47,954 bases of DNA from the IMG/VR virus record IMGVR_UViG_3300020200_000004. One strand, 5' to 3'. A model generated the notes under the pieces. The model searched no databases and was not told the origin of the DNA. It worked only from the letters and a program-made list of their open reading frames with translations. Made by a program: the position numbers and the translations under genes. This stretch comes from a virus. Lineage: Duplodnaviria; Heunggongvirae; Uroviricota; Caudoviricetes. Shown here piece by piece: positions 2,665 through 43,441 of the stretch (position 1 is the stretch's first letter; every line of letters starts with the position of its first letter).

Positions 2665-3051
2665 TTGAAACCAACTACTCGCAATATTATCGTTGACATT
2701 ATTATCAGCGATCATCAAACTAAAGGCAATGCTTATCTGCCTCATCAAGATAAAGTTGAATTAACGAATTACTTAGTTCACGTTTTAGTTAATCCAGCGA
2801 CATTAAAAAGGCATTTGCAATTCTTAGCTGATATGAATGTTAAACCTAATTGCGCAGTAGATAGCGAAACGGCCAATTTGATGCTTCATGAAGGTTTAGA
2901 TAATATTAATAAGTCGGCAATTGCTAAACTGGCTATTGATAAAATTGCTTTGATTTTTCTTCATAGGCAAATCGACAAATTAACTCCTGAAAAGTGGATA
3001 AAGGCGATTGAAGCTGAAGGTGTTAAGAAGCTAGTACCTCAAGAGAAATGA
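2665..3051 (+). CDS. hypothetical protein
   Basis: 128-aa co-oriented ORF with GGGAG upstream. Confidence 0.6.
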   Translation: MKPTTRNIIVDIIISDHQTKGNAYLPHQDKVELTNYLVHVLVNPATLKRHLQFLADMNVKPNCAVDSETANLMLHEGLDNINKSAIAKLAIDKIALIFLHRQIDKLTPEKWIKAIEAEGVKKLVPQEK

Positions 3052-3479: not shown

Positions 3480-3845
3480 ATGGAAGGGAAAGTGATGGAC
3501 CAAAAAACATGGCAGGAATTCTATTGCAATAAATGTCCAGGCGGCAACTACATCATGGTCAAACTCAATATAGGGCTTGACTATACTGTAGCTGTTGTTT
3601 GCCCTATGTGTGGCGCTAAACATGAACGCACAATTGAAAAGGGGCAAATCTTTGATAGAGGCAAAAAAAATAATTATATAGAAGAAATCTGCCCACCTAA
3701 ATCTGCTTGTAGTAAAGAAGCAAGACATTCTAAAATTAAACCTGGAGCAAGAGATGGTGCTATAGTTAAAACAGATAAAGATTTAGTCAGAGATAGCATC
3801 ATGCGTGAACTTTGGTTAAGCTATCATGGTGGCGAGCAAGATTAA
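3480..3845 (+). CDS. hypothetical zinc-ribbon protein
   Basis: CNKC...CPMC pairs. Confidence 0.6.
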   Translation: MEGKVMDQKTWQEFYCNKCPGGNYIMVKLNIGLDYTVAVVCPMCGAKHERTIEKGQIFDRGKKNNYIEEICPPKSACSKEARHSKIKPGARDGAIVKTDKDLVRDSIMRELWLSYHGGEQD

Positions 3846-11974: not shown

Positions 11975-12847
11975 GATTAAATTTACAAAGTTACATCCAC
12001 ATACAAAATCAAAACCTGGAAATAAATACGGTAAATTAACTTTTATTGATAAGCGAGAAGGATCGTTAAATAAAGGATTTATATGGCAATGTGATTGCGG
12101 AACACTTTGCGAATTACCTTCTAATTATGTTCGTTATGGGAATACTACTTCTTGTGGATGTTTTCGAAAAAGTGGAGAGGCTTGTAGAAAGCACAAATGC
12201 CCTGACAGCCTAACTGCACAACAATTAAGTGTAATTACTGGATCAATGTTGGGAGATGGCTGGATCGACAAAACACTAGGGAACCATAGATTTAAAAAAG
12301 CACAAATTCATTATGAATCTATAAATTGGATATGTGAGATATTGAAGCCATTTACAGAAAAGGTATATGAGAAATACACTAAACAAAAAATAGTTAACAA
12401 AGTTAATGGTGAAAAATGCAAGCCATTTTGCATACCATGTGAAAAGCGGTTGACTCATTATTACACAAGGACATGCAATCATCCAATATTTAGCGAGTTA
12501 GAGACAAAATGGTACAAAAGAGACGGAAATGGAATTTATATTAAGGATTCAAAAGGCTGGAGAATTAAAACAATACCGGATGATTTGAAGCTCACTCCAG
12601 AAATATTGATGATGGCAGTGTAAAACATAAAGCAAAACAAAGTTATTTATGTACAAATGGCTTTTCGATTGAAGACAATGAAATTTTAAAATATAAATTG
12701 AAATTTGATTTGGGCTTAAATTGTTCTATCACTAAAGATAACCGGCTATATTTCGGCGCAAATAATCACTTGGAATTACATAAAATTATTGCACCATTCG
12801 CAAATACATGGGAGTGTTTTAAATACAAATTTAATTATGTTTGCTGA
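11952..12847 (+). pseudogene. Frameshifted LAGLIDADG (I-SceI-like) homing endonuclease
   Basis: GSMLGDG in the first frame; second motif DDGS..LCTNGFS continues in another frame from 12608 to TGA at 12845-12847; N-terminal KYGKLT..WQCDCG. Confidence 0.75.
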
Positions 12848-13562
12848 TAAAATTAATGGTAAATGCGTTTCCATTGCTGATACACATGGAGATTTATCAA
12901 AAGTCAAAAATATGCTAGGGTTTTTATGTAAAGAAAAAATAATTGATGATGATACGTGGCTTGTGTTTCTTGGGGACCACGTTGATATTGGACCTGATAC
13001 AGCAGGAACTATAAATTTACTAATTAATTTCCATAAATATCATCCAAAGACAACGTTCCTTTGTGGCAATCATGATTTAAACTTAATTAAGGGCTTAAAT
13101 CTAATTGACAATCCTGACCATGAATTTTATTTAAACAGGATTCCAAATAGATGTTCAGCCACACTTAAGTCTTATAAAGCTGCTAATGCCAAAGAATTAA
13201 ATGAAAAGATGCCAGACAGCCATAAAGAATTCTTTAAGAAGTTGGTTTGGCATTGTGAGCATCCTGATTTCTTCTTTGTACATGCTGGTTTAGACTCAAC
13301 AGAACCATATGATTCACAGTTGAAGAAGTTACAGGCAAGGGATATTAACCAGTATAAGCCTAAGTGGTTATATGAAGATAGTTTGGGAATGCATATGCCG
13401 CCTGTAGATACTAATAAATGTGTAGTTTCTGGTCATTGCATTCGATCTTATATTTTAATGGATGAAAACAAAAAGAGGATTGGGCTTGATACTGGTTGCG
13501 GTTATAATGGGCCTTTGTCGGCTGTAGCTTTGCCAGAATTCAAGTTCTATCAAGCAAAATAG
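12837..13562 (+). CDS. Metallophosphoesterase (PPP/ApaH-like)
   Basis: DTHG, LGDHVDIG, GNHD, HAG and GH motifs. Confidence 0.9.
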   Translation: MFADKINGKCVSIADTHGDLSKVKNMLGFLCKEKIIDDDTWLVFLGDHVDIGPDTAGTINLLINFHKYHPKTTFLCGNHDLNLIKGLNLIDNPDHEFYLNRIPNRCSATLKSYKAANAKELNEKMPDSHKEFFKKLVWHCEHPDFFFVHAGLDSTEPYDSQLKKLQARDINQYKPKWLYEDSLGMHMPPVDTNKCVVSGHCIRSYILMDENKKRIGLDTGCGYNGPLSAVALPEFKFYQAK

Positions 13563-13597
13563 TGCCGTTCTATTCTTAAGGGGGTAGAAAGATGCAC
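13562..13597 (+). repeat. hairpin repeat A, copy 7
   Basis: GTGCCGTTCTATTCTTAAGGGGGTAGAAAGATGCAC; first G is the last base of the upstream TAG. Confidence 0.88.
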
Positions 13598-13759
13598 TGG
13601 CAACCTGAACACGCATCATCAGAAATTGAAGAAGCAATGGAATCATGCAAATTAACAGAACATGATCGTGATGAAGTTCGTAGGTTTGCTGAATTCTTGA
13701 AACGATTAAAGGATCATAAAGAAAATAAAAAGCTTGAACCTGTTCCAAATGGCATTTGA
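13592..13759 (+). CDS. hypothetical protein (55 aa) starting inside repeat A
   Basis: MHWQPEHASSEIEEAM..., below the ORF track cut-off. Confidence 0.55.
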   Translation: MHWQPEHASSEIEEAMESCKLTEHDRDEVRRFAEFLKRLKDHKENKKLEPVPNGI

Positions 13760-13986
13760 TTTATGATTTCAACATCGAAACAGAAAGTGGCTTTTGTTCA
13801 TTGACGCACTGTTTGACTGTTCCTACAGAGACTAAAGAACAAATTGAAGCTTATTTCAGGAATTGGGGCACTCCTGAAATGGCTAGATATTGCGAATCGG
13901 CAGGATATAACTTCCATAAATGTCCTCTTGTGTTAGGTTTAATGGCTGGCGAAGAAGTTTTCAACCCAGATGGGACACTTATATGA
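13756..13986 (+). CDS. hypothetical protein
   Basis: 76-aa ORF coupled to its neighbours. Confidence 0.55.
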   Translation: MIYDFNIETESGFCSLTHCLTVPTETKEQIEAYFRNWGTPEMARYCESAGYNFHKCPLVLGLMAGEEVFNPDGTLI

Positions 13987-14154
13987 GTTTAACATTTCAA
14001 GATTTAAGAATTTGTGCTGATACTCTTTATGATGCAATCCACAATAAAGTTAATACATGGGATAGTGAAATTCTGGACGAAGTTTTAACCAAAATTGAAA
14101 ACATGCTAGATGGTATTTGTTTAATGGAAATTTTGCCAGATGATAAAATGGCAT

Positions 14155-14322
14155 TTAATAGCCAGTTAAAAGCCATTCAAATCCATCTGGAGAGCTAAAA
14201 GCTGCATATATTCCATCTGTTCTTACATTAACAGAAGTATAACCATTTGGCACTTGAGTTGGCCTATTAAATATCTTGTTCAAAAAACCTTCAGATATAA
14301 GGAATTTTTTAAAATCTGTCAT
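14155..14322 (-). CDS. hypothetical protein (55 aa, MTDFKKFLISE)
   Basis: ATG overlaps the kinase stop codon. Confidence 0.5.
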   Translation of the reverse strand: MTDFKKFLISEGFLNKIFNRPTQVPNGYTSVNVRTDGIYAAFSSPDGFEWLLTGY

Positions 14323-14930
14323 TTATTTATGATTTCCTCCATAACCTTTTTAACGCTTTCTAGATTATTTCCATCTACAACGAAGAAATTGTTTCCAAAT
14401 AATCCTTGAACGCCTGGCCCTTTTTCTCCTGAAAATACGTTGCCAAGCACTTGCTGATGAACCTTTCTTAGTTCATTTGGGTCACTTAGGCTACGTTCTG
14501 GCCTGTTTTGATTTCTTTTCAAGGCAACTTCGGGGTCTGTGTTAACGTAAACGGCAAAACACTGGTAGCCGCCTTTTTCGCTAAGGGCTTTCAGTTGAGC
14601 AATTGTCCTGAAGTTTTGACCAGTTTTTTCAGTAACTATAGGATAGCCTTGTTTTAAATAATGATCAATTCTCTTGTCATTTTGCACAGATGCCCAGACG
14701 TGATGTTGCTTTTGTTGAGGGTCATTTAAACTTACATTAACTTTTTGCTGATTTTGTATTTTACGCATCATAGCTTCGAAATATTGGTCAATAATAGCCA
14801 TTCTGAAGCCATTTGCAGCAAACATTTTGGCAATATAGGTTTTTCCTGCCCCTGGTCCACCTAACACTATGACCAACTTAGGGTTATATTCTTTTACATA
14901 TCCTTCCAAAAATTGCGCAAAAGTAATCAT
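14319..14930 (-). CDS. P-loop kinase (AAA_33 / zeta-toxin-like)
   Basis: IVLGGPGAGKT Walker A; LKRNQNRPER lid-like segment. Confidence 0.8.
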   Translation of the reverse strand: MITFAQFLEGYVKEYNPKLVIVLGGPGAGKTYIAKMFAANGFRMAIIDQYFEAMMRKIQNQQKVNVSLNDPQQKQHHVWASVQNDKRIDHYLKQGYPIVTEKTGQNFRTIAQLKALSEKGGYQCFAVYVNTDPEVALKRNQNRPERSLSDPNELRKVHQQVLGNVFSGEKGPGVQGLFGNNFFVVDGNNLESVKKVMEEIINK

Positions 14931-22502: not shown

Positions 22503-23633
22503 ATGAACGAAATTGGTATTGGCCATGCAAGCACAATGACGATTGAGAAAACTACCCATAAAACCGAAGTGGTCAGGGTGGATGAACTCATTAAAGTTGC
22601 AAATTCTGACCGGCTTTCTACAGTTAAAGTTTATGATTATGCCAGTGTCGTTTTAACTAATGAATGGCAACCTGGCGATCTTGCTGCCTGGATTCAACCT
22701 GATAGCGTTGTTGACGTTACTAGGCCAGAATTCGCTTTTCTTGCTCCTAAAGCTACTGATAATAAGGTCCGCATTCGTACTACCCGTTTGCGTGGCGTTC
22801 TTTCCTATGGTTTGCTAGTTAAAGCGCCTGTTGGTTCAAAGATTGGTGATGACGTTTCTGAAGCTTTGGGCGTTGTTCATTGGGAACCTGATGAAACCCC
22901 TGGATTCTCTGTGCATGGTGGAGAAAACGCAAAATCTCCAAGTGGTGTTTTTCCTACTTATGACGTTGATGCTTATCTTAAGTTTGGCCGTTTAGTATTT
23001 GTGCCAGGTGAGCCTGTTTTTATTACAGAGAAAATCCAAGGCGCAAATGGCAAATGCGTTTTTAAAGACGGTCAACAATATTGCGGCACAAGGACTCAAT
23101 GGAAAAAGGAATTTCCGAGTAAGCCTACACAAACTTACGAAGAAATCCTTGCGCAATTTGAAAATGATGAAGCTAAGGCTAAATCTGCATGGAGAAAGAT
23201 TGAGAATTGGAAACCCAAGCGTAGTCGATGGTGGTCAGCTTTTCATAATTCTCCAGGGATTAGTGAGTTTTGCAAAGCTAATCCAGGCTATGCCCTTTAT
23301 GGAGAAGTTTATGGTCAAGTGGGTGGCTATCATTATGGTATTGAAAATGGAGAAAGTAAATTTTTCGCTTTTGACATTCTAACTCCAGATGGCCAATGGC
23401 TTGATTTCCCTAATTTTCTAGATAAAATTAATGAATTCGGTATACCTCATGTGCCGATTCTTCATCAAGCGTTTCCTTTTGATTTCGATGCAATAAGTGA
23501 AATGGCTAATGGACATAGCTTAGTCCCAAATGCCGAGAACATCAGGGAAGGTGTTGTAGTTGGCACAGTGAAGGAACGTTGGGATGAAAGACTTGGCCGA
23601 GTTAAACTTAAAGTAATTAACCCGGATTATTGA
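22503..23633 (+). CDS. RNA ligase, DRB0094/Rnl2-like family
   Basis: N-terminal ANSDRL..WQPGD..PDSVV module; TEKIQG (motif I), YGEVYG, FAFDI, REGVVV and KLKVINPDY. Confidence 0.88.
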   Translation: MNEIGIGHASTMTIEKTTHKTEVVRVDELIKVANSDRLSTVKVYDYASVVLTNEWQPGDLAAWIQPDSVVDVTRPEFAFLAPKATDNKVRIRTTRLRGVLSYGLLVKAPVGSKIGDDVSEALGVVHWEPDETPGFSVHGGENAKSPSGVFPTYDVDAYLKFGRLVFVPGEPVFITEKIQGANGKCVFKDGQQYCGTRTQWKKEFPSKPTQTYEEILAQFENDEAKAKSAWRKIENWKPKRSRWWSAFHNSPGISEFCKANPGYALYGEVYGQVGGYHYGIENGESKFFAFDILTPDGQWLDFPNFLDKINEFGIPHVPILHQAFPFDFDAISEMANGHSLVPNAENIREGVVVGTVKERWDERLGRVKLKVINPDY

Positions 23634-23660
23634 TGTTTGGCAACCAGTTTTAGGTGAAGA

Positions 23661-26000
23661 ATGTCCATGATGAATGCCGATGGGCCTGTGCGCTGCCCTA
23701 GCTGTAAACCACATAAGAATAAAAAAGGTAAGATTATAGGCCCAAATCTTACATTATCGGAAAGTAATTATTCCGGTTATGGCGTGGATATGGCTAATTG
23801 TCCAGAATGCGGCAAAGGATTTCAAATTAGCTTTAAAATTGACAAAATTGAGCGAGCGCCTTCCTGGGATGTTGATCTTGTAGCCGAAGAAGAAGCCAAT
23901 AAAGAATACAGGAAAAAAAACATTGAACGGTTAGAAGAAGAATTAAGAAAAGCAAAGGAAAGTGTGTTATAAATGCAAAAAATTTATGCAGCTATGTGCG
24001 ATTTTAATGGATTGGTTGGTTATGACCTAACTGAAGGCAAAGGCGGAATGGTAGTCATTGGTTATTTTCTTAATCAAGCTGATGCCCTTTACGCTACAAA
24101 AGGTTGGGGTGTAATGGGTTACGGCGATGGAGAAGTAAAAGAACTAAACCTTTATAGTTCAGTAGAAGATTGGGAAAAGCACGAAAAACTTAAATTAAAG
24201 GCAAGTGCATTAGCTAAATTGACTCTAGAAGAACGTAAAGCTTTGGGATTTTAATTGTACCAAGTGAAGCCATGAACTACACAGTAAACTATTTGCGAAG
24301 TCTTGGTTTTGAAGCCAAGTGGGCTAAGATTGGTGGTCGGCCTATTCTTATGGCACGTAACCCATTAGCAAAACACCTTCATCAACGAACAACTTGGTGG
24401 GTTATTGATAATCAAATGTGGGAAATGGCTAAAGAAATTGGCTTTCCCGCTGCTTTTGATAACTCTACTTTGCTTGGCGATCTATTCAATATGCCAGCTT
24501 GAGGATTAAATGAAGTTCAAGAATGGTGATGTTGTTGTTTTTGAACCTAAGAACTTCAACAAGAAATATTGGGCTGAGCTTTCAGAAAAGGATAGAATTA
24601 GGTATTATGGCCCTTTAGGTTATGGCCGCAAGAAACCAAAGCTATTCATCTATATGACAAATATTAATGCAATGGAAAATGGCAAGAGATATGACACATG
24701 CCATTGCGTTTTGTTGGATATGGATGATGGACATTTGGAGTATAATGATTGATACTTGCTTTTGATGGGGTTGACACGTATCCTTGAAACCAAAATTCCT
24801 CCAAGCTGTTAAGGAATAAATTATGTCATTTGATACTAAAGGAACTATTGGCAAGAAACCATGCGAAATTTCATTAAATGCAATATTGGCCGAGCAAAAG
24901 AATGGCAAATTAAGCGGCAATTTACTTAGCCTTTTGCAAAAATTCAAGAAAATATTGCTTTTTCTAGGGACTGCTGATTCACCTTATACTAAATTTCTGG
25001 CAGATTTGGCTAGGCAACATTCAGAAAAAAGGTTATCGGACATTACTGGAGTTAAGCTTAAAGGCGTCCCGATAACAAATAAAGTTGCTTCTCATGCATT
25101 AAGTTGTATGAGGGCTTATTATAGAGAATTTCTAACAAGCAAGAGGAAGTTTAAATGATTTGTTGTTATTGCGAACAAAGAAAGAAAGCATCTAAGAAAG
25201 ACCCGGAATTTTGCCAAGAATGTTATAACGACATTGAAAATCGGCGTAAGAACGTAATGAAACATGCCGATGCCGTTGTAGGACTTTCTAGGCATACCAA
25301 TATGACTCGCAAGGAAAATGTAGCCGCATTTCTTGGCGTTTTCCATCCAGAAATGAATCAGCGTAGGGTTCATAAAATTCTTAGCTTAGTTAAGGGATAA
25401 CATGCCTGAAACTATCCAATATGGTTTAATGACTCTAGATGGCGAGTTGGCAAGATTTAGCTACCACGGATATCATGATGGGTATTATACTTTAAGTGAT
25501 AATAAAAATGATCCTGTTTGGCTAGTAAGTAATCCAGAATATGTATCTGACACTTTATATGAAAACGTCCCGTATTATAATAGTAACTATAATAGACCAT
25601 CCTGGGGACCATTTAAGAGAAACGAATTGCTGCCAGCTAAATTAACTTCCATATTGGCAGATGCATCCGAAGTTAATTTGCATTTGAATGTTTCTACGTT
25701 AAACTATAGAGACTTATTGCCTAATGTACTTAAAATGTATACTAAGACTGTAGAAACTACCAATACTTATTTTGTTGGTGTTTTGTCTGAGCAAACTGTA
25801 GAAGAATTAAAGCCTTATATTGGCAAGATTGTATGTTTTGATTCATTGCACAATAAACGTAAAGTATTGGATGTTATAGAAGTGCCAGATGAATATCCAA
25901 GGGAAGTTATTTGTGAGGCAATTTAATTGTACTAAGGGAAACATGGTTAATGATCGTCTTTGGAAAATTAAAAAATGGCGGAAGTATTGGGAAAATAAAT
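23661..26000 (+). other. Run of small hypothetical ORFs (23661-23972, 23973-24254, 24272-24502, 24510-24752, 24823-25158, 25155-25400, 25402-25926)
   Basis: Co-oriented and tightly packed; two end at motif B TAA. Confidence 0.6.
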
Positions 26001-26166
26001 GACTGTAAATTTACCTATTAGAATTGCGGCAGAAGTAACACGGTTTCTTACATTGAATTGTAGGAAATTCACTTGCATTTATAAACCTTCTGCAACTTCT
26101 GATATTACTGTAAGCGAAGAAGATAAAGACTTTTTGGAAGAACTAATTAATTCAATTCATCTATAA

Positions 26167-27294
26167 ATGTTAAAAGTTCAAGAATATTTAGCTTCCAATT
26201 CTATTGAAAAGCTAATTGAAGAATTCCATATCATCGTCACCAAGGATGATACGTCTCCGTTGATTATCCTTAACTATGATCAAATCGAATCAAGTCCTAA
26301 GAACCATCCTGTCATTAGGGAATGTCGTGGGTTAGTATTAGATTCTACGGATTATTCATTAGTAGCTCGCAGCTTTTTACGGTTTTTTAATTGGGGAGAA
26401 CAAGCTGACGAAATGCCCTTATTCAACTTCAATAAATTCTATGTAAATGAAAAAGTCGATGGAAGTTTAGTAATCGTTTTCAACTACAAAGGCCAGTGGT
26501 TTGCTAATACCAGAGGTTCATTTGGTCGCAACTTGATGCAATTTACTGATTTCACTTGGCAAGATGCTTTTTGTCAGGCATTAGGGATCAATACGCTTCA
26601 AGAACTAAAACTTGACCCTGCATATACTTATGTTTGTGAATATTGCTCGCCTTTCAATAAGATTGTTCGTCATTATTCCAAACCAGTAATGTATTTGTTG
26701 ACGATGTTCAAGGGAGAGCAAGAATTAACTCAAGATGAAGTAGATCAGGTAGGTTTCTTACGTCCTGAACGTTTTGCATTTACTAATATTGACGATATTT
26801 TAACCTTTTTGGTGGATAAATCGTCAGTTGATCCTACGTTTGAAGGAATTGTTAAGTGCGATGATGCTTTCAGGCGTTGGAAAGTGAAATCTAAGACTTA
26901 TGTTTCCCTTCACCATATGCGGGGGAACAATGGAGAAAATCTATATAATCCGAAATACTTGCTGCCGTTCATTCTGGCTGGAGAAACGGATGAAGTCACG
27001 AATTACTTTGAAGAAACTAAGGAAGTAATTGCCGATTATAAGAATCAAGTTGACATTCATTTTGCCAACATGATGAAAGTTTGGGAAGCGGCTAAAGATA
27101 TTACTGTCCAAAAGGATTTCGCTTTAGCTATTGTTGGCAAAACTCCGTTTACTGGTTTTTTGTTTGAAGCTAGAAAGAAAGGTGTTAATCCTTCTCTTTT
27201 GTGGCGTAGTGGAGAAGATGCTATCCTTAAACATTTAAAAACACCTAGCTTTGTCAAGGCAAAACTAGAGGCAATGGAGAACCAAAATGTCTAA
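26167..27294 (+). CDS. RNA ligase, T4 Rnl1-like
   Basis: IILNY..RECRGLVL, NEKVDGS (motif I), CEY, FEGIV and KVKSKTY. Confidence 0.88.
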   Translation: MLKVQEYLASNSIEKLIEEFHIIVTKDDTSPLIILNYDQIESSPKNHPVIRECRGLVLDSTDYSLVARSFLRFFNWGEQADEMPLFNFNKFYVNEKVDGSLVIVFNYKGQWFANTRGSFGRNLMQFTDFTWQDAFCQALGINTLQELKLDPAYTYVCEYCSPFNKIVRHYSKPVMYLLTMFKGEQELTQDEVDQVGFLRPERFAFTNIDDILTFLVDKSSVDPTFEGIVKCDDAFRRWKVKSKTYVSLHHMRGNNGENLYNPKYLLPFILAGETDEVTNYFEETKEVIADYKNQVDIHFANMMKVWEAAKDITVQKDFALAIVGKTPFTGFLFEARKKGVNPSLLWRSGEDAILKHLKTPSFVKAKLEAMENQNV

Positions 27295-31169: not shown

Positions 31170-31421
31170 ATGAATACGAGTAAATTCCTCTGGAATTCTA
31201 AAACTAGAACATTTACCGCTGAAATTAGTTCATTGCGTGAAGAAAAGATTGATGAAATCCGCCTCCAGTCTGCAACTACAGGCAGGATAGTCACTTACAA
31301 ACTTAAATTTACAAAACGTGATGAAGGCGATATAATATATTGGGAACTTGAACCAATCCCAGAAAGTGTAGTAAATATACCAGAATGCAAGGACACAAAA
31401 ATCATTATCTTCAACGACTAA
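31170..31421 (+). CDS. hypothetical protein
   Basis: Start reassigned to the ATG after motif B at 31149. Confidence 0.65.
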   Translation: MNTSKFLWNSKTRTFTAEISSLREEKIDEIRLQSATTGRIVTYKLKFTKRDEGDIIYWELEPIPESVVNIPECKDTKIIIFND

Positions 31422-31648
31422 AACCCGGTGATGTGCTGATAACGCACACTGGACAAATAGCCACTTTTACGAGACTTGGTTATTCAGATGGCTTCAATGA
31501 TCTAATTGACGAAATTATTGTTGAAGTTGGTAACAAAACTTATTCACTGTCTCCGCATGAAATAAAAGGTTTGTATTGTCTAGAAACACCTAAAGGTTTT
31601 ATTCCTTTATCTTACTTGGCAACATTGAGAGATTTAATAAATAGAAAT

Positions 31649-31787
31649 GGGCCGGATATGGCTTCGATTGTGTAACCGAATAGTAGTCTAAGGCGTGGTA
31701 GCCTAAAACGGGAAAAGATGCGCTTTGTTGAAGTACCGTGATTGCTAATAGTTACGCAAGACCTGGGATCGTTCCCCAGCCGGTCCA
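31649..31787 (+). ncRNA. Minimal tmRNA-like RNA (139 nt)
   Basis: Acceptor GGGCCGG/CCGGTCC with G3.U70 and discriminator A; GGCTTCGA 5' loop; GAC then T-arm CTGGG/CCCAG; P2 helices TTGTGTAAC/GTTACGCAA and TAGTAGTC/GATTGCTA. Confidence 0.75.
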
Positions 31788-31789
31788 CT

Positions 31790-32020
31790 ATGAAATACGC
31801 TGTTTATATTAAATTAGACTGGCATTTTGGATGGCAATTATATCGTTTCTTTAATTCAGAAAAAGAAGCGAATGATGAAATTGCCTACTTCAAAGCTAAT
31901 GCCTGCAAAGCTAGTATTGCCTTATTAGAAAAAGGTAATACATTATGGCCAATTAAATTTTACTTATTCTGGCCTAAAACCGCTAAACTCCTAGTCAAAT
32001 GCAGACTTGATAAATGTTAA
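31790..32020 (+). CDS. hypothetical protein
   Basis: ATG immediately after the tmRNA-like 3' end; stop in motif B. Confidence 0.6.
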   Translation: MKYAVYIKLDWHFGWQLYRFFNSEKEANDEIAYFKANACKASIALLEKGNTLWPIKFYLFWPKTAKLLVKCRLDKC

Positions 32021-36161: not shown

Positions 36162-36689
36162 ATGAAGATTAAAGCAATAACCGATGCCCTTGGATTTGAG
36201 ACAACCTTAGAACATATCCAAATTGCCCAAAAAGCATATCAGGGATGGCCGCTTGATTTGCTAAAAAATACATGCCAAGAACTTATAAATGAACTAAACC
36301 GAGTTAACCCAGATGGCGGCGCAGCTTGGAGTTTTGTACATTCTATGAAAATTGCTATTGCTCTCCGTGAAAATTATCCTTCCTTAAAATGGGTCAAGAG
36401 CAATTTGCGCAATAACCTGCAAGCTAGAGTTAAATATAAAATTCTAGATGCTTGTGTAATCGGCAGCGAAGCGAAAGGTACTGCCAAACCTGATAGCGAC
36501 CTTGATATTGCTGTTATCATTCCTCCAGTTAGGGGCAAAACCGCATTAAAGGTTTCAGAAAATTATCATGCAAAGTTTACTAATGAAAAATGGAAACCGC
36601 AATGGAATGGCCGCATTGTTGACTTCCAGTTTTTCTACCCCAATGATCCAGAATTAACTAATTACAATAAAATTAATTGTACCAAATAG
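36162..36689 (+). CDS. Pol-beta-superfamily (MNT-like) nucleotidyltransferase
   Basis: VIGSEAKGTAKPDSDLDIAV (GS..DxD) and VDF third acidic residue. Confidence 0.8.
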   Translation: MKIKAITDALGFETTLEHIQIAQKAYQGWPLDLLKNTCQELINELNRVNPDGGAAWSFVHSMKIAIALRENYPSLKWVKSNLRNNLQARVKYKILDACVIGSEAKGTAKPDSDLDIAVIIPPVRGKTALKVSENYHAKFTNEKWKPQWNGRIVDFQFFYPNDPELTNYNKINCTK

Positions 36690-43367: not shown

Positions 43368-43441
43368 GGCCTCGAAACATTTAATTGGATGATGACCAGC
43401 CTTTTAAGCTGGAGAATTCGGCTCGATTCCGAACGGGGCTA
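43368..43441 (+). tRNA. tRNA-Lys(UUU), atypical
   Basis: Acceptor GGCCTCG/CGGGGCT; anticodon arm CCAGC-CTTTTAA-GCTGG; T-arm TTCGG-CTCGATT-CCGAA; irregular D arm; no encoded CCA. Confidence 0.75.

Follow-up and report, generated by a model that had tools for sequence, protein, structure and literature searches.

Trans-translation is the main bacterial ribosome-rescue pathway. A phage-encoded tmRNA of reduced form has been described in mycobacteriophage DS6A, which carries a 'TLD only' (CDS-less) molecule (Hudson, Lau & Williams, 2014, PMC4131195; PMC11915505). A TLD-only molecule similar to that of DS6A is described as a strong inhibitor of tmRNA in E. coli, whether chargeable or not (Mao et al., 2009, cited in PMC4131195; PMC11915505), acting perhaps through SmpB titration. 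Relatives of tmRNA without a tag frame also exist as mitochondrial forms and as plastid forms of ~65 bp, and the tmRNAs of Fermentibacterota have natural tags of only 2 aa (PMC11915505). These forms are cellular or organellar and co-occur with SmpB, whereas no SmpB was found in the phage records searched here.

The window, that is, the whole stretch of DNA that was analysed (47,954 nt; IMG/VR record IMGVR_UViG_3300020200_000004), belongs to a large lake-water phage that is present in several lake-water metagenomes. Judged from the sequence and its relatives, positions 31649-31787 (+) are a real 139-nt RNA gene, a structurally conserved, cut-down relative of tmRNA. The element and the open reading frames (ORFs) on either side of it are laid out as follows.

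31385-31675: upstream ORF, 96 aa; its last 27 nt overlap the start of the element
31649-31655 (+): acceptor stem, 5' strand, GGGCCGG; G3 of the G3.U70 pair at 31651
Between GGGCCGG and GGCUUCGA (+): linker AUAU
31660-31667 (+): stemless D-loop analogue, GGCUUCGA (DNA GGCTTCGA)
31668-31676 (+): P2a, 5' strand, UUGUGUAAC; partner 31751-31759
Between the 5' strands of P2a and P2b (+): CGAA, joining the two
31681-31688 (+): P2b, 5' strand, UAGUAGUC; partner 31740-31747
Between the P2b 5' strand and P3 (+): UA
31691-31704 (+): hairpin P3, AGGC / loop GUGGUA / GCCU
Between P3 and P4 (+): spacer AAA
31708-31739 (+): hairpin P4, stem ACGG/CCGU, 24-nt loop GAAAAGAUGCGCUUUGUUGAAGUA
31720-31731 (+): putative tag frame GCG CTT TGT TGA (GCG CUU UGU UGA), within the P4 loop region
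31740-31747 (+): P2b, 3' strand, GAUUGCUA
Between the 3' strands of P2b and P2a (+): AUA
31751-31759 (+): P2a, 3' strand, GUUACGCAA
31760-31762 (+): GAC connector, preceding the T-arm
31763-31779 (+): T-arm, 5-bp stem, CTGGG / ATCGTTC / CCCAG (CUGGG / AUCGUUC / CCCAG)
31780-31786 (+): acceptor stem, 3' strand, CCGGTCC (CCGGUCC), pairing with 31649-31655; U70 at 31784
31787 (+): discriminator A73
31790-32020: downstream ORF, 76 aa; its ATG lies 2 nt past A73

An earlier reading of this DNA, made from its letters only (hereafter the sequence-only reading), had placed the acceptor stem with G3.U70, the D-loop analogue, the two P2 helices, GAC, the T-arm and the short frame, and all of its coordinates were right. 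The predicted fold of minimum free energy (-46.4 kcal/mol; z of -2.1 relative to shuffled sequences) contains all of these helices: the acceptor stem, P2a, P2b, P3, P4 and the T-arm. P2 amounts to 17 bp in two parts, and P2b encloses only ~51 nt, in which there are two simple hairpins. CCA is not encoded in the window (ACTA), nor is it in 26 of the 27 members of the family described below.

The tRNA-like domain and P2 of the element correspond to those of standard tmRNA (RF00023), and GGCUUCGAUUGUGUAACC in the window is similar to GGCUUCGAUUUUGUAGCC in the full-length tmRNA of the uncultured phage LR756511. The standard molecule is ~355 nt long, whereas the short form has ~140 nt and is without PK2-PK4, helix 5 and a conserved tag frame. 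With the DS6A RNA the element has in common that it is phage-encoded, has a G3.U70/A73 acceptor, a stemless D-loop analogue and a T-arm, and lacks both an encoded CCA and any evident tag frame. However, the DS6A RNA is 79 nt long and reaches barely beyond the tRNA-like domain, whereas the 139 nt of the window element include a two-part P2 and two extra covarying hairpins. The rnaC of T4 (species 1 RNA) is likewise a 139-nt small stable phage RNA with a T-arm beside an end-to-end stem. Its acceptor-like stem, in contrast, has U.U mismatches and no G3.U70, and it has no D-loop analogue. In T4 it lies at L008:2909-3047 (-), with the canonical T-arm CCGGG UUCGAAU CCCGG, a 7-bp end-to-end stem containing two U.U mismatches and a z of -4.6. 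Though tRNA-like, it was rejected as a homologue of the family, scoring 22 bits with the family model R1 (see below), the level of an ordinary tRNA, and lacking G3.U70.

Relatives of the element and their covariation

A bare descriptor, in which a 7-bp acceptor with G3.U70 directly adjoins a hairpin of 5 bp and a 7-nt loop, had 4 matches on the two strands of the window, and only that at 31649-31787 has the D-loop analogue, GAC and A73 as well. Applied to part of LR756511, the same descriptor picked out a similarly built element of 133 nt, whose T-loop is canonical and which shows compensated differences in both its acceptor stem and its T-stem. In DS6A, on which Rfam and ARAGORN found nothing, it placed the TLD-only tmRNA at L010:28478-28556. 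Blastn against GenBank phages matched neither the element nor the surrounding 1-24 kb, and the element of the relative L011 had no match there either. The window element is 100% identical in 5 other contigs of the same phage from different lake-water samples, and these contigs therefore hold no covariation information. An exact 19-mer scan of IMG/VR gave one match (L001), which is GC-rich, lies in a coding region and was discarded as chance.

A first IMG/VR pattern, in which the 3' acceptor strand was left free, returned 66 loci, and a complete short element was present in only 4 of them. An IUPAC pattern that fixes only G1-C4, GGNUUCGA, the T-stem GGG/CCC and GUCCA matched 7 IMG/VR loci and 61 metagenome loci. 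Perfect pairing of acceptor and T-stem was then required, a filter that dropped 41 of 70 pattern matches and left 27 distinct elements of 117-139 nt, the window included; the 26 others measure 117-137 nt and come from viral and metagenome contigs. The carrier contigs include some of 129, 160, 341 and 373 kb, and the largest is LR756511 (595 kb). When the same pattern was run on a set of 185,579 species of bacteria and archaea, with one genome per species, it matched 48 times; a single match survives the stem filter, and that one looks different. The comparison of viral and metagenome matches with cellular ones thus indicates a family carried almost only by phages.

Covariance model R1 was built from 10 relatives, the window being left out. 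On the window it scored 85.8 bits over model positions 1-136 of 136 (E about 1e-18, by a rough calibration), and on the DS6A element 30.8 bits. In a model-fitted alignment of 17 distinct sequences, 98% of cells are in standard pairs and 27 of 35 pairs have changes on both sides. The observed values were matched by none of 500 shuffles of this alignment, and when the partners were slid by 1-3 columns as a control, 25-42% were paired. RNAalifold, applied to a plain MAFFT alignment of 10 sequences that was not fitted to the structure, found compensatory changes at 16 of 33 pairs. A homologue search with covariation had been proposed in the sequence-only reading, and the compensated pairs are its outcome. 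The same reading had named, as the outcome that would count against it, homologues conserving the overlapping ORF in place of the base pairs; the relatives keep the pairs, and the overlapping ORF is without homologues.

By helix, compensatory changes were found at all 7 modelled pairs of P2a, and all 8 of P2b (helices 3 and 4), all 4 of P3 and all 4 of P4 covary; the family also covaries at positions 5 and 6 of the acceptor stem and at positions 1-2 of the T-stem. The search pattern itself fixed G1-C4, the D-loop analogue (family consensus GGYUUCGAC), a portion of the T-stem and GUCCA, whose conservation in the family is therefore not evidence. P2a, P2b, P3 and P4 lie outside the pattern, so that their covariation is independent evidence.

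These results bear directly on whether the element could resemble tmRNA by chance, or be a piece of a host tmRNA gene of the attP type. Integration at ssrA, with carriage of its 3' end, is common among phages, and ARAGORN and default-filter Rfam find nothing at the element. Yet both acceptor halves and four internal helices covary over 17 sequences, the E value of ~1e-18 is to a model built without the window, and no integrase was seen among the neighbour genes that have family matches. The R1 score and the covariation refute such an origin in practice, and it is considered extremely improbable.

Further reduced forms were seen beside the core family. Reduced phage tmRNAs form a size series that runs from a 76-nt TLD-only form (L024:1315-1390) up to a 117-123-nt class with a different interior (series loci L078, L080, L085, L090, L097, L127, L129, L134 and L140). 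In part of the 117-123-nt class there is a recurring CYUAG..AAAG motif, with frames such as ALVKT* or GLAK*. The 373-kb contig, which holds a core-family element, also holds a second, divergent tmRNA-like element of ~128 nt (L149:1501-1627, contig positions 24758-24884). This element scores 29 bits with RF00023; its acceptor, GGGGGAU/AUCCUCC, includes G3.U70, its T-arm is canonical and its interior differs.

Detection by standard tools and the state of the window copy

ARAGORN did not call the element; its only call in the window was a tRNA-Leu elsewhere. Rfam at gathering thresholds with default filters reported nothing at 31649-31787, and RF00023 had no match to the window copy at E<=10. The sole Rfam match at E<=10 was beta_tmRNA, a local alignment of 8 bits to the T-arm and the 3' strand of the acceptor. 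Both checks that had been suggested for the window, ARAGORN and Infernal with the Rfam tmRNA models, thus came back negative, with no tmRNA call at the element and the RF00023 cut-off not reached.

None of the relatives was called by ARAGORN. With relaxed filters RF00023, whose gathering score is 47 bits, did match relatives from end to end, the model's interior appearing as a deletion. The element of L080 scored 60.1 bits, those of L079 and LR756511 50.4 bits each, that of L063 49.8 bits and that of L011 48.1 bits. The L079 element (L079:272-410) is unreported by Rfam under default filters in gathering mode, yet exceeds the cut-off when the filters are relaxed; cmscan on a 201-nt excerpt of L079 gave a truncated alignment of 20 bits. 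The phrase 'stripped-down phage tmRNA' used in the sequence-only reading is supported by homology to a phage-borne family whose close members reach the RF00023 gathering score with relaxed filters. Because ARAGORN and default-filter Rfam miss these genes, routine phage annotation will omit them.

The window copy departs from its relatives at several places. Its T-loop had been called atypical, and it is: AUCGUUC, with A54/U58 and not U54/A58, occurs in no other of the 27 members and does not conform to the canonical UUCRAnY. The relatives have UUCAAUU or UUCGAnU, and TTC[AG]A opens the loop in 24 of the 27 members. The window copy retains U55 and C56, and its difference at 54 and 58 is a reciprocal swap of U.A for A.U; the swapped pair may still form a T-loop. 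In the feature made up of the D-loop analogue and GAC, the window has GAU where relatives carry GAC. The family junction motifs CC..AAG and AGCAA are altered, and the R1 score is the second-lowest in the core group.

The odd T-loop and the altered junction motifs mean that the window copy could be impaired. It might even be a pseudogene on its way out in an otherwise functional family, as its singular T-loop, altered junctions, low R1 score and want of an RF00023 match would suggest. Its six helices are all intact, however, with many compensated differences from the relatives, U55 and C56 are retained beside a swap that is reciprocal, and the identical sequence is present in the 5 other contigs from different lake samples, albeit from one phage population. 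Decay of the window copy is therefore judged improbable.

The interior hairpins and the putative tag frame

The loops of P3 and P4 are conserved in sequence: GUGGUA in P3 is near-invariant in the core family, the P4 loop motifs are found in distant relatives as well, and the P4 loop of the window contains the family motifs GAAAAGAUGC and AAGUA. In 92% of cells GGUA of the P3 loop could pair with UGCC of the P4 loop, a figure to which covariation adds no information since both sides are invariant. The pk1-like pairing of CGT with ACG that had been proposed in the sequence-only reading was not sustained; it scores no better than slid controls, and its ACG is the 5' strand of the covarying P4 stem (ACGG/CCGU). 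PK1 in the short element would be vestigial at best.

The short open frame GCG CTT TGT TGA is present at 31720-31731, as the sequence-only reading had said, though it is not conserved across relatives. It invites the view that the element is a functional minimal tmRNA which, with SmpB, enters a stalled ribosome, resumes at the GCG in the P4 loop, adds Ala-Leu-Cys and ends at UGA, leaving no protease tag. Several observations are in keeping with this. The conserved GAAAAGAU leads into a GCN codon in every one of the 17 core members, and a stop occurs within 7 codons of the aligned GCN in 11 of them. UAGUC precedes the resume codon of E. coli tmRNA, and the conserved AAGUA is similar to it. The P4 loop sequence has been kept although P2 diverged, and the 2-aa tags of Fermentibacterota provide a natural precedent (PMC11915505).

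The frame itself behaves otherwise. Read from the aligned GCN, the 17 members give 6, 7, 6, 7, 4, 1, none, none, 20, 1, 1, 13, none, 1, 3, 13 and 2 codons; the three without a count reach the 3' end without meeting a stop, and other frames, of 13-20 codons, extend over P2 and the T-arm. Starting from any other aligned column likewise failed to give a terminated frame in all 17 sequences. Among close relatives there are 1-nt indels within the putative frame (L063 CUCAAUUCAAGUA, L081 CUCAAUCAAGUA, L079 CUAAAAACAAAGUA). The triplet after the conserved AAGUA is GCG, CCG or GGG, following the pairing of P4 and not coding, and the P4 loop is A/U-rich, so that early stops are expected by chance. Because the frames are inconsistent, interrupted by indels and led by a triplet that tracks P4, GCG CUU UGU UGA in the window is most likely a chance frame. 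No tag frame is conserved in the family, which is an absence of conservation and does not amount to a demonstration of non-translation. The appending of (A)ALC, as proposed in the sequence-only reading, is not borne out by frames of such uneven length, and short-tag trans-translation by the element is regarded as unlikely, although some members may carry a very short tag.

Genomic setting and proposed role

Among GenBank phages the nearest record to the window is the uncultured 595-kb LR756511.1, with 45% amino-acid identity in Rnl1. The window encodes Rnl1-type and Rnl2-type RNA ligases, a metallophosphatase, a P-loop kinase and a small nucleotidyltransferase. These RNA-repair-type genes are spread over 12789-14930, 22503-27294 and 36162-36689; the kinase is of the zeta/AAA_33 type and on the minus strand, the nucleotidyltransferase is NTP_transf_2 and the ligases are Rnl2-like and Rnl1-like. 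Also encoded in the window are an ADP-ribosylglycohydrolase, ParB, DUF932, two SprT-like proteins and LAGLIDADG endonucleases.

The 96-aa ORF upstream of the element has no obvious ribosome-binding site. Neither it nor the 76-aa downstream ORF has a homologue other than itself among 5.8 billion proteins, and a search for related loci with the upstream ORF found nothing; the flanking ORFs are orphans, and synteny therefore cannot be used. If the RNA is excised from a polycistronic transcript, the message of the upstream ORF would lose its stop codon. Such a loss of the stop codon on RNA excision has been noted for smpB/ssrA in Carsonella (PMC4131195). An eye-read promoter, TTGGCA-16-TAAATA, which ends 5 nt before G31649, fails the criteria of the promoter scanner and was rejected. 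The one strong promoter-like site, at 31308-31336, lies before the 96-aa ORF, and no terminator-like site was found.

In the relative L011 the element lies within a non-coding stretch of ~400 nt, downstream of a terminator-like hairpin and a promoter-like site. Between that promoter-like site and the element, 14 nt upstream of the latter, is a foldable RNA of ~130 nt (L011:4176-4310 (-); -52 kcal/mol, z only -1.2), and the RNA cluster of L011 is flanked by a TTGCRATTGTACCA motif. In L063 (2860-3080), CTTAGCTGTACCAAG stands after the mini-tmRNA and again after a tRNA-Sec-like RNA at 2968-3051 (Rfam 25 bits), and is a candidate promoter or processing signal of the phage. A further ARAGORN call in L063 is an odd tRNA at 3502-3595, its anticodon undetermined. 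In the window, 43369-43440 (+) matches the Rfam tRNA model at 29.6 bits (cut-off 29) and was not called by ARAGORN; this is perhaps a phage tRNA gene that has diverged, or a tRNA-like one.

This setting raises the question of whether the element is a tRNA-like RNA acting outside trans-translation, as a decoy or substrate for tRNA-targeting nucleases of the host or for RNA-repair enzymes of the phage itself, or as a processing or stability element for neighbouring mRNAs. The ligases, metallophosphatase, kinase and nucleotidyltransferase of the window would suit such a role. So would the tRNA genes that L002, L011 and L063 carry no more than a few kb from the element, the ORFs that adjoin it on both sides in the window, and the conserved P3 and P4 loops, which have no assigned role in tmRNA. 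But the anticodon arm on which anticodon nucleases act is absent, the features that have been kept are the tmRNA tRNA-like domain and P2, and relatives exceed the RF00023 cut-off. A role outside trans-translation is consequently held to be quite unlikely.

No SmpB was found among the 30 larger ORFs of the window that were scanned, nor was SmpB (PF01668) found in 5 carrier records, among them a contig of 373 kb that is 98% complete and the complete genome of 595 kb. Full-length tmRNA and the short element are present together in the complete LR756511 genome, the former at 341278-341632 (L142:1503-1855 (-); 122 bits, tag ANPEFAMAA), and likewise in the 341-kb contig, classed as a provirus in IMG/VR (full-length tmRNA at L144:1503-1859 (-), tag ATPYEYALAA). 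The short element is thus a separate gene and not the remnant of a sole tmRNA. In LR756511 the full and short copies hardly differ in the T-arm and the trailing ACUU.

Taken together, the element is best explained as a reduced tmRNA homologue of a phage family, most probably a tag-less mimic that uses host AlaRS and SmpB; this reading is given a probability of roughly 0.6. The RNA would be excised from its transcript and CCA added by host enzymes, after which it would be recognised by host AlaRS, through G3.U70 and A73, and by host SmpB. The host protein is proposed as the partner because no phage SmpB was found. The mimic would then compete with host tmRNA for SmpB or for stalled ribosomes, as a TLD-only molecule similar to that of DS6A did when expressed in E. 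coli; alternatively, it would take up the stalled peptide without adding a degradation tag. Either way, the effect of the phage would be to weaken tagging and degradation while it infects the cell. An SmpB decoy had been offered in the sequence-only reading as the alternative to tagging and, with the DS6A precedent (PMC4131195; PMC11915505), appears the more likely of the two.

TLD-only forms of 76-80 nt would suffice as a sponge, so the interior of the ~135-nt RNAs probably does something more, and the conserved loops of P3 and P4 probably point to an added function beyond that of an SmpB sponge. A bolder proposal is that the ~135-nt class is the smallest working trans-translation RNA, in which AAGUA and the conserved P3 loop, perhaps paired with UGCC as a vestigial PK1, would place a template of 1-7 codons from the P4 loop into the A site; this is considered unlikely. 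If it were true, phages of 129-595 kb, some of them with a full-length tmRNA as well, could turn 'rescue and degrade' in the infected cell into 'rescue and keep'.

No published description of the ~135-nt size class was found in the literature searched. What is new is the architecture and covariation of this class, the finding that it occurs alongside full-length phage tmRNA, and a divergent member overlooked by standard tools; standard Rfam annotation runs may miss RNAs of this class. The DS6A molecule is the one known phage RNA that probably blocks trans-translation, and the window element adds a second, larger and more elaborate reduced form of tmRNA. The short RNA also provides a natural minimal scaffold for asking which parts of tmRNA serve SmpB binding, ribosome entry and template loading. 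Compensatory conservation, occurrence on phage contigs of up to 595 kb, the full-length tmRNA sometimes found alongside and the failure to find a phage SmpB together point to a deliberate re-tuning of host rescue and tagging during infection.
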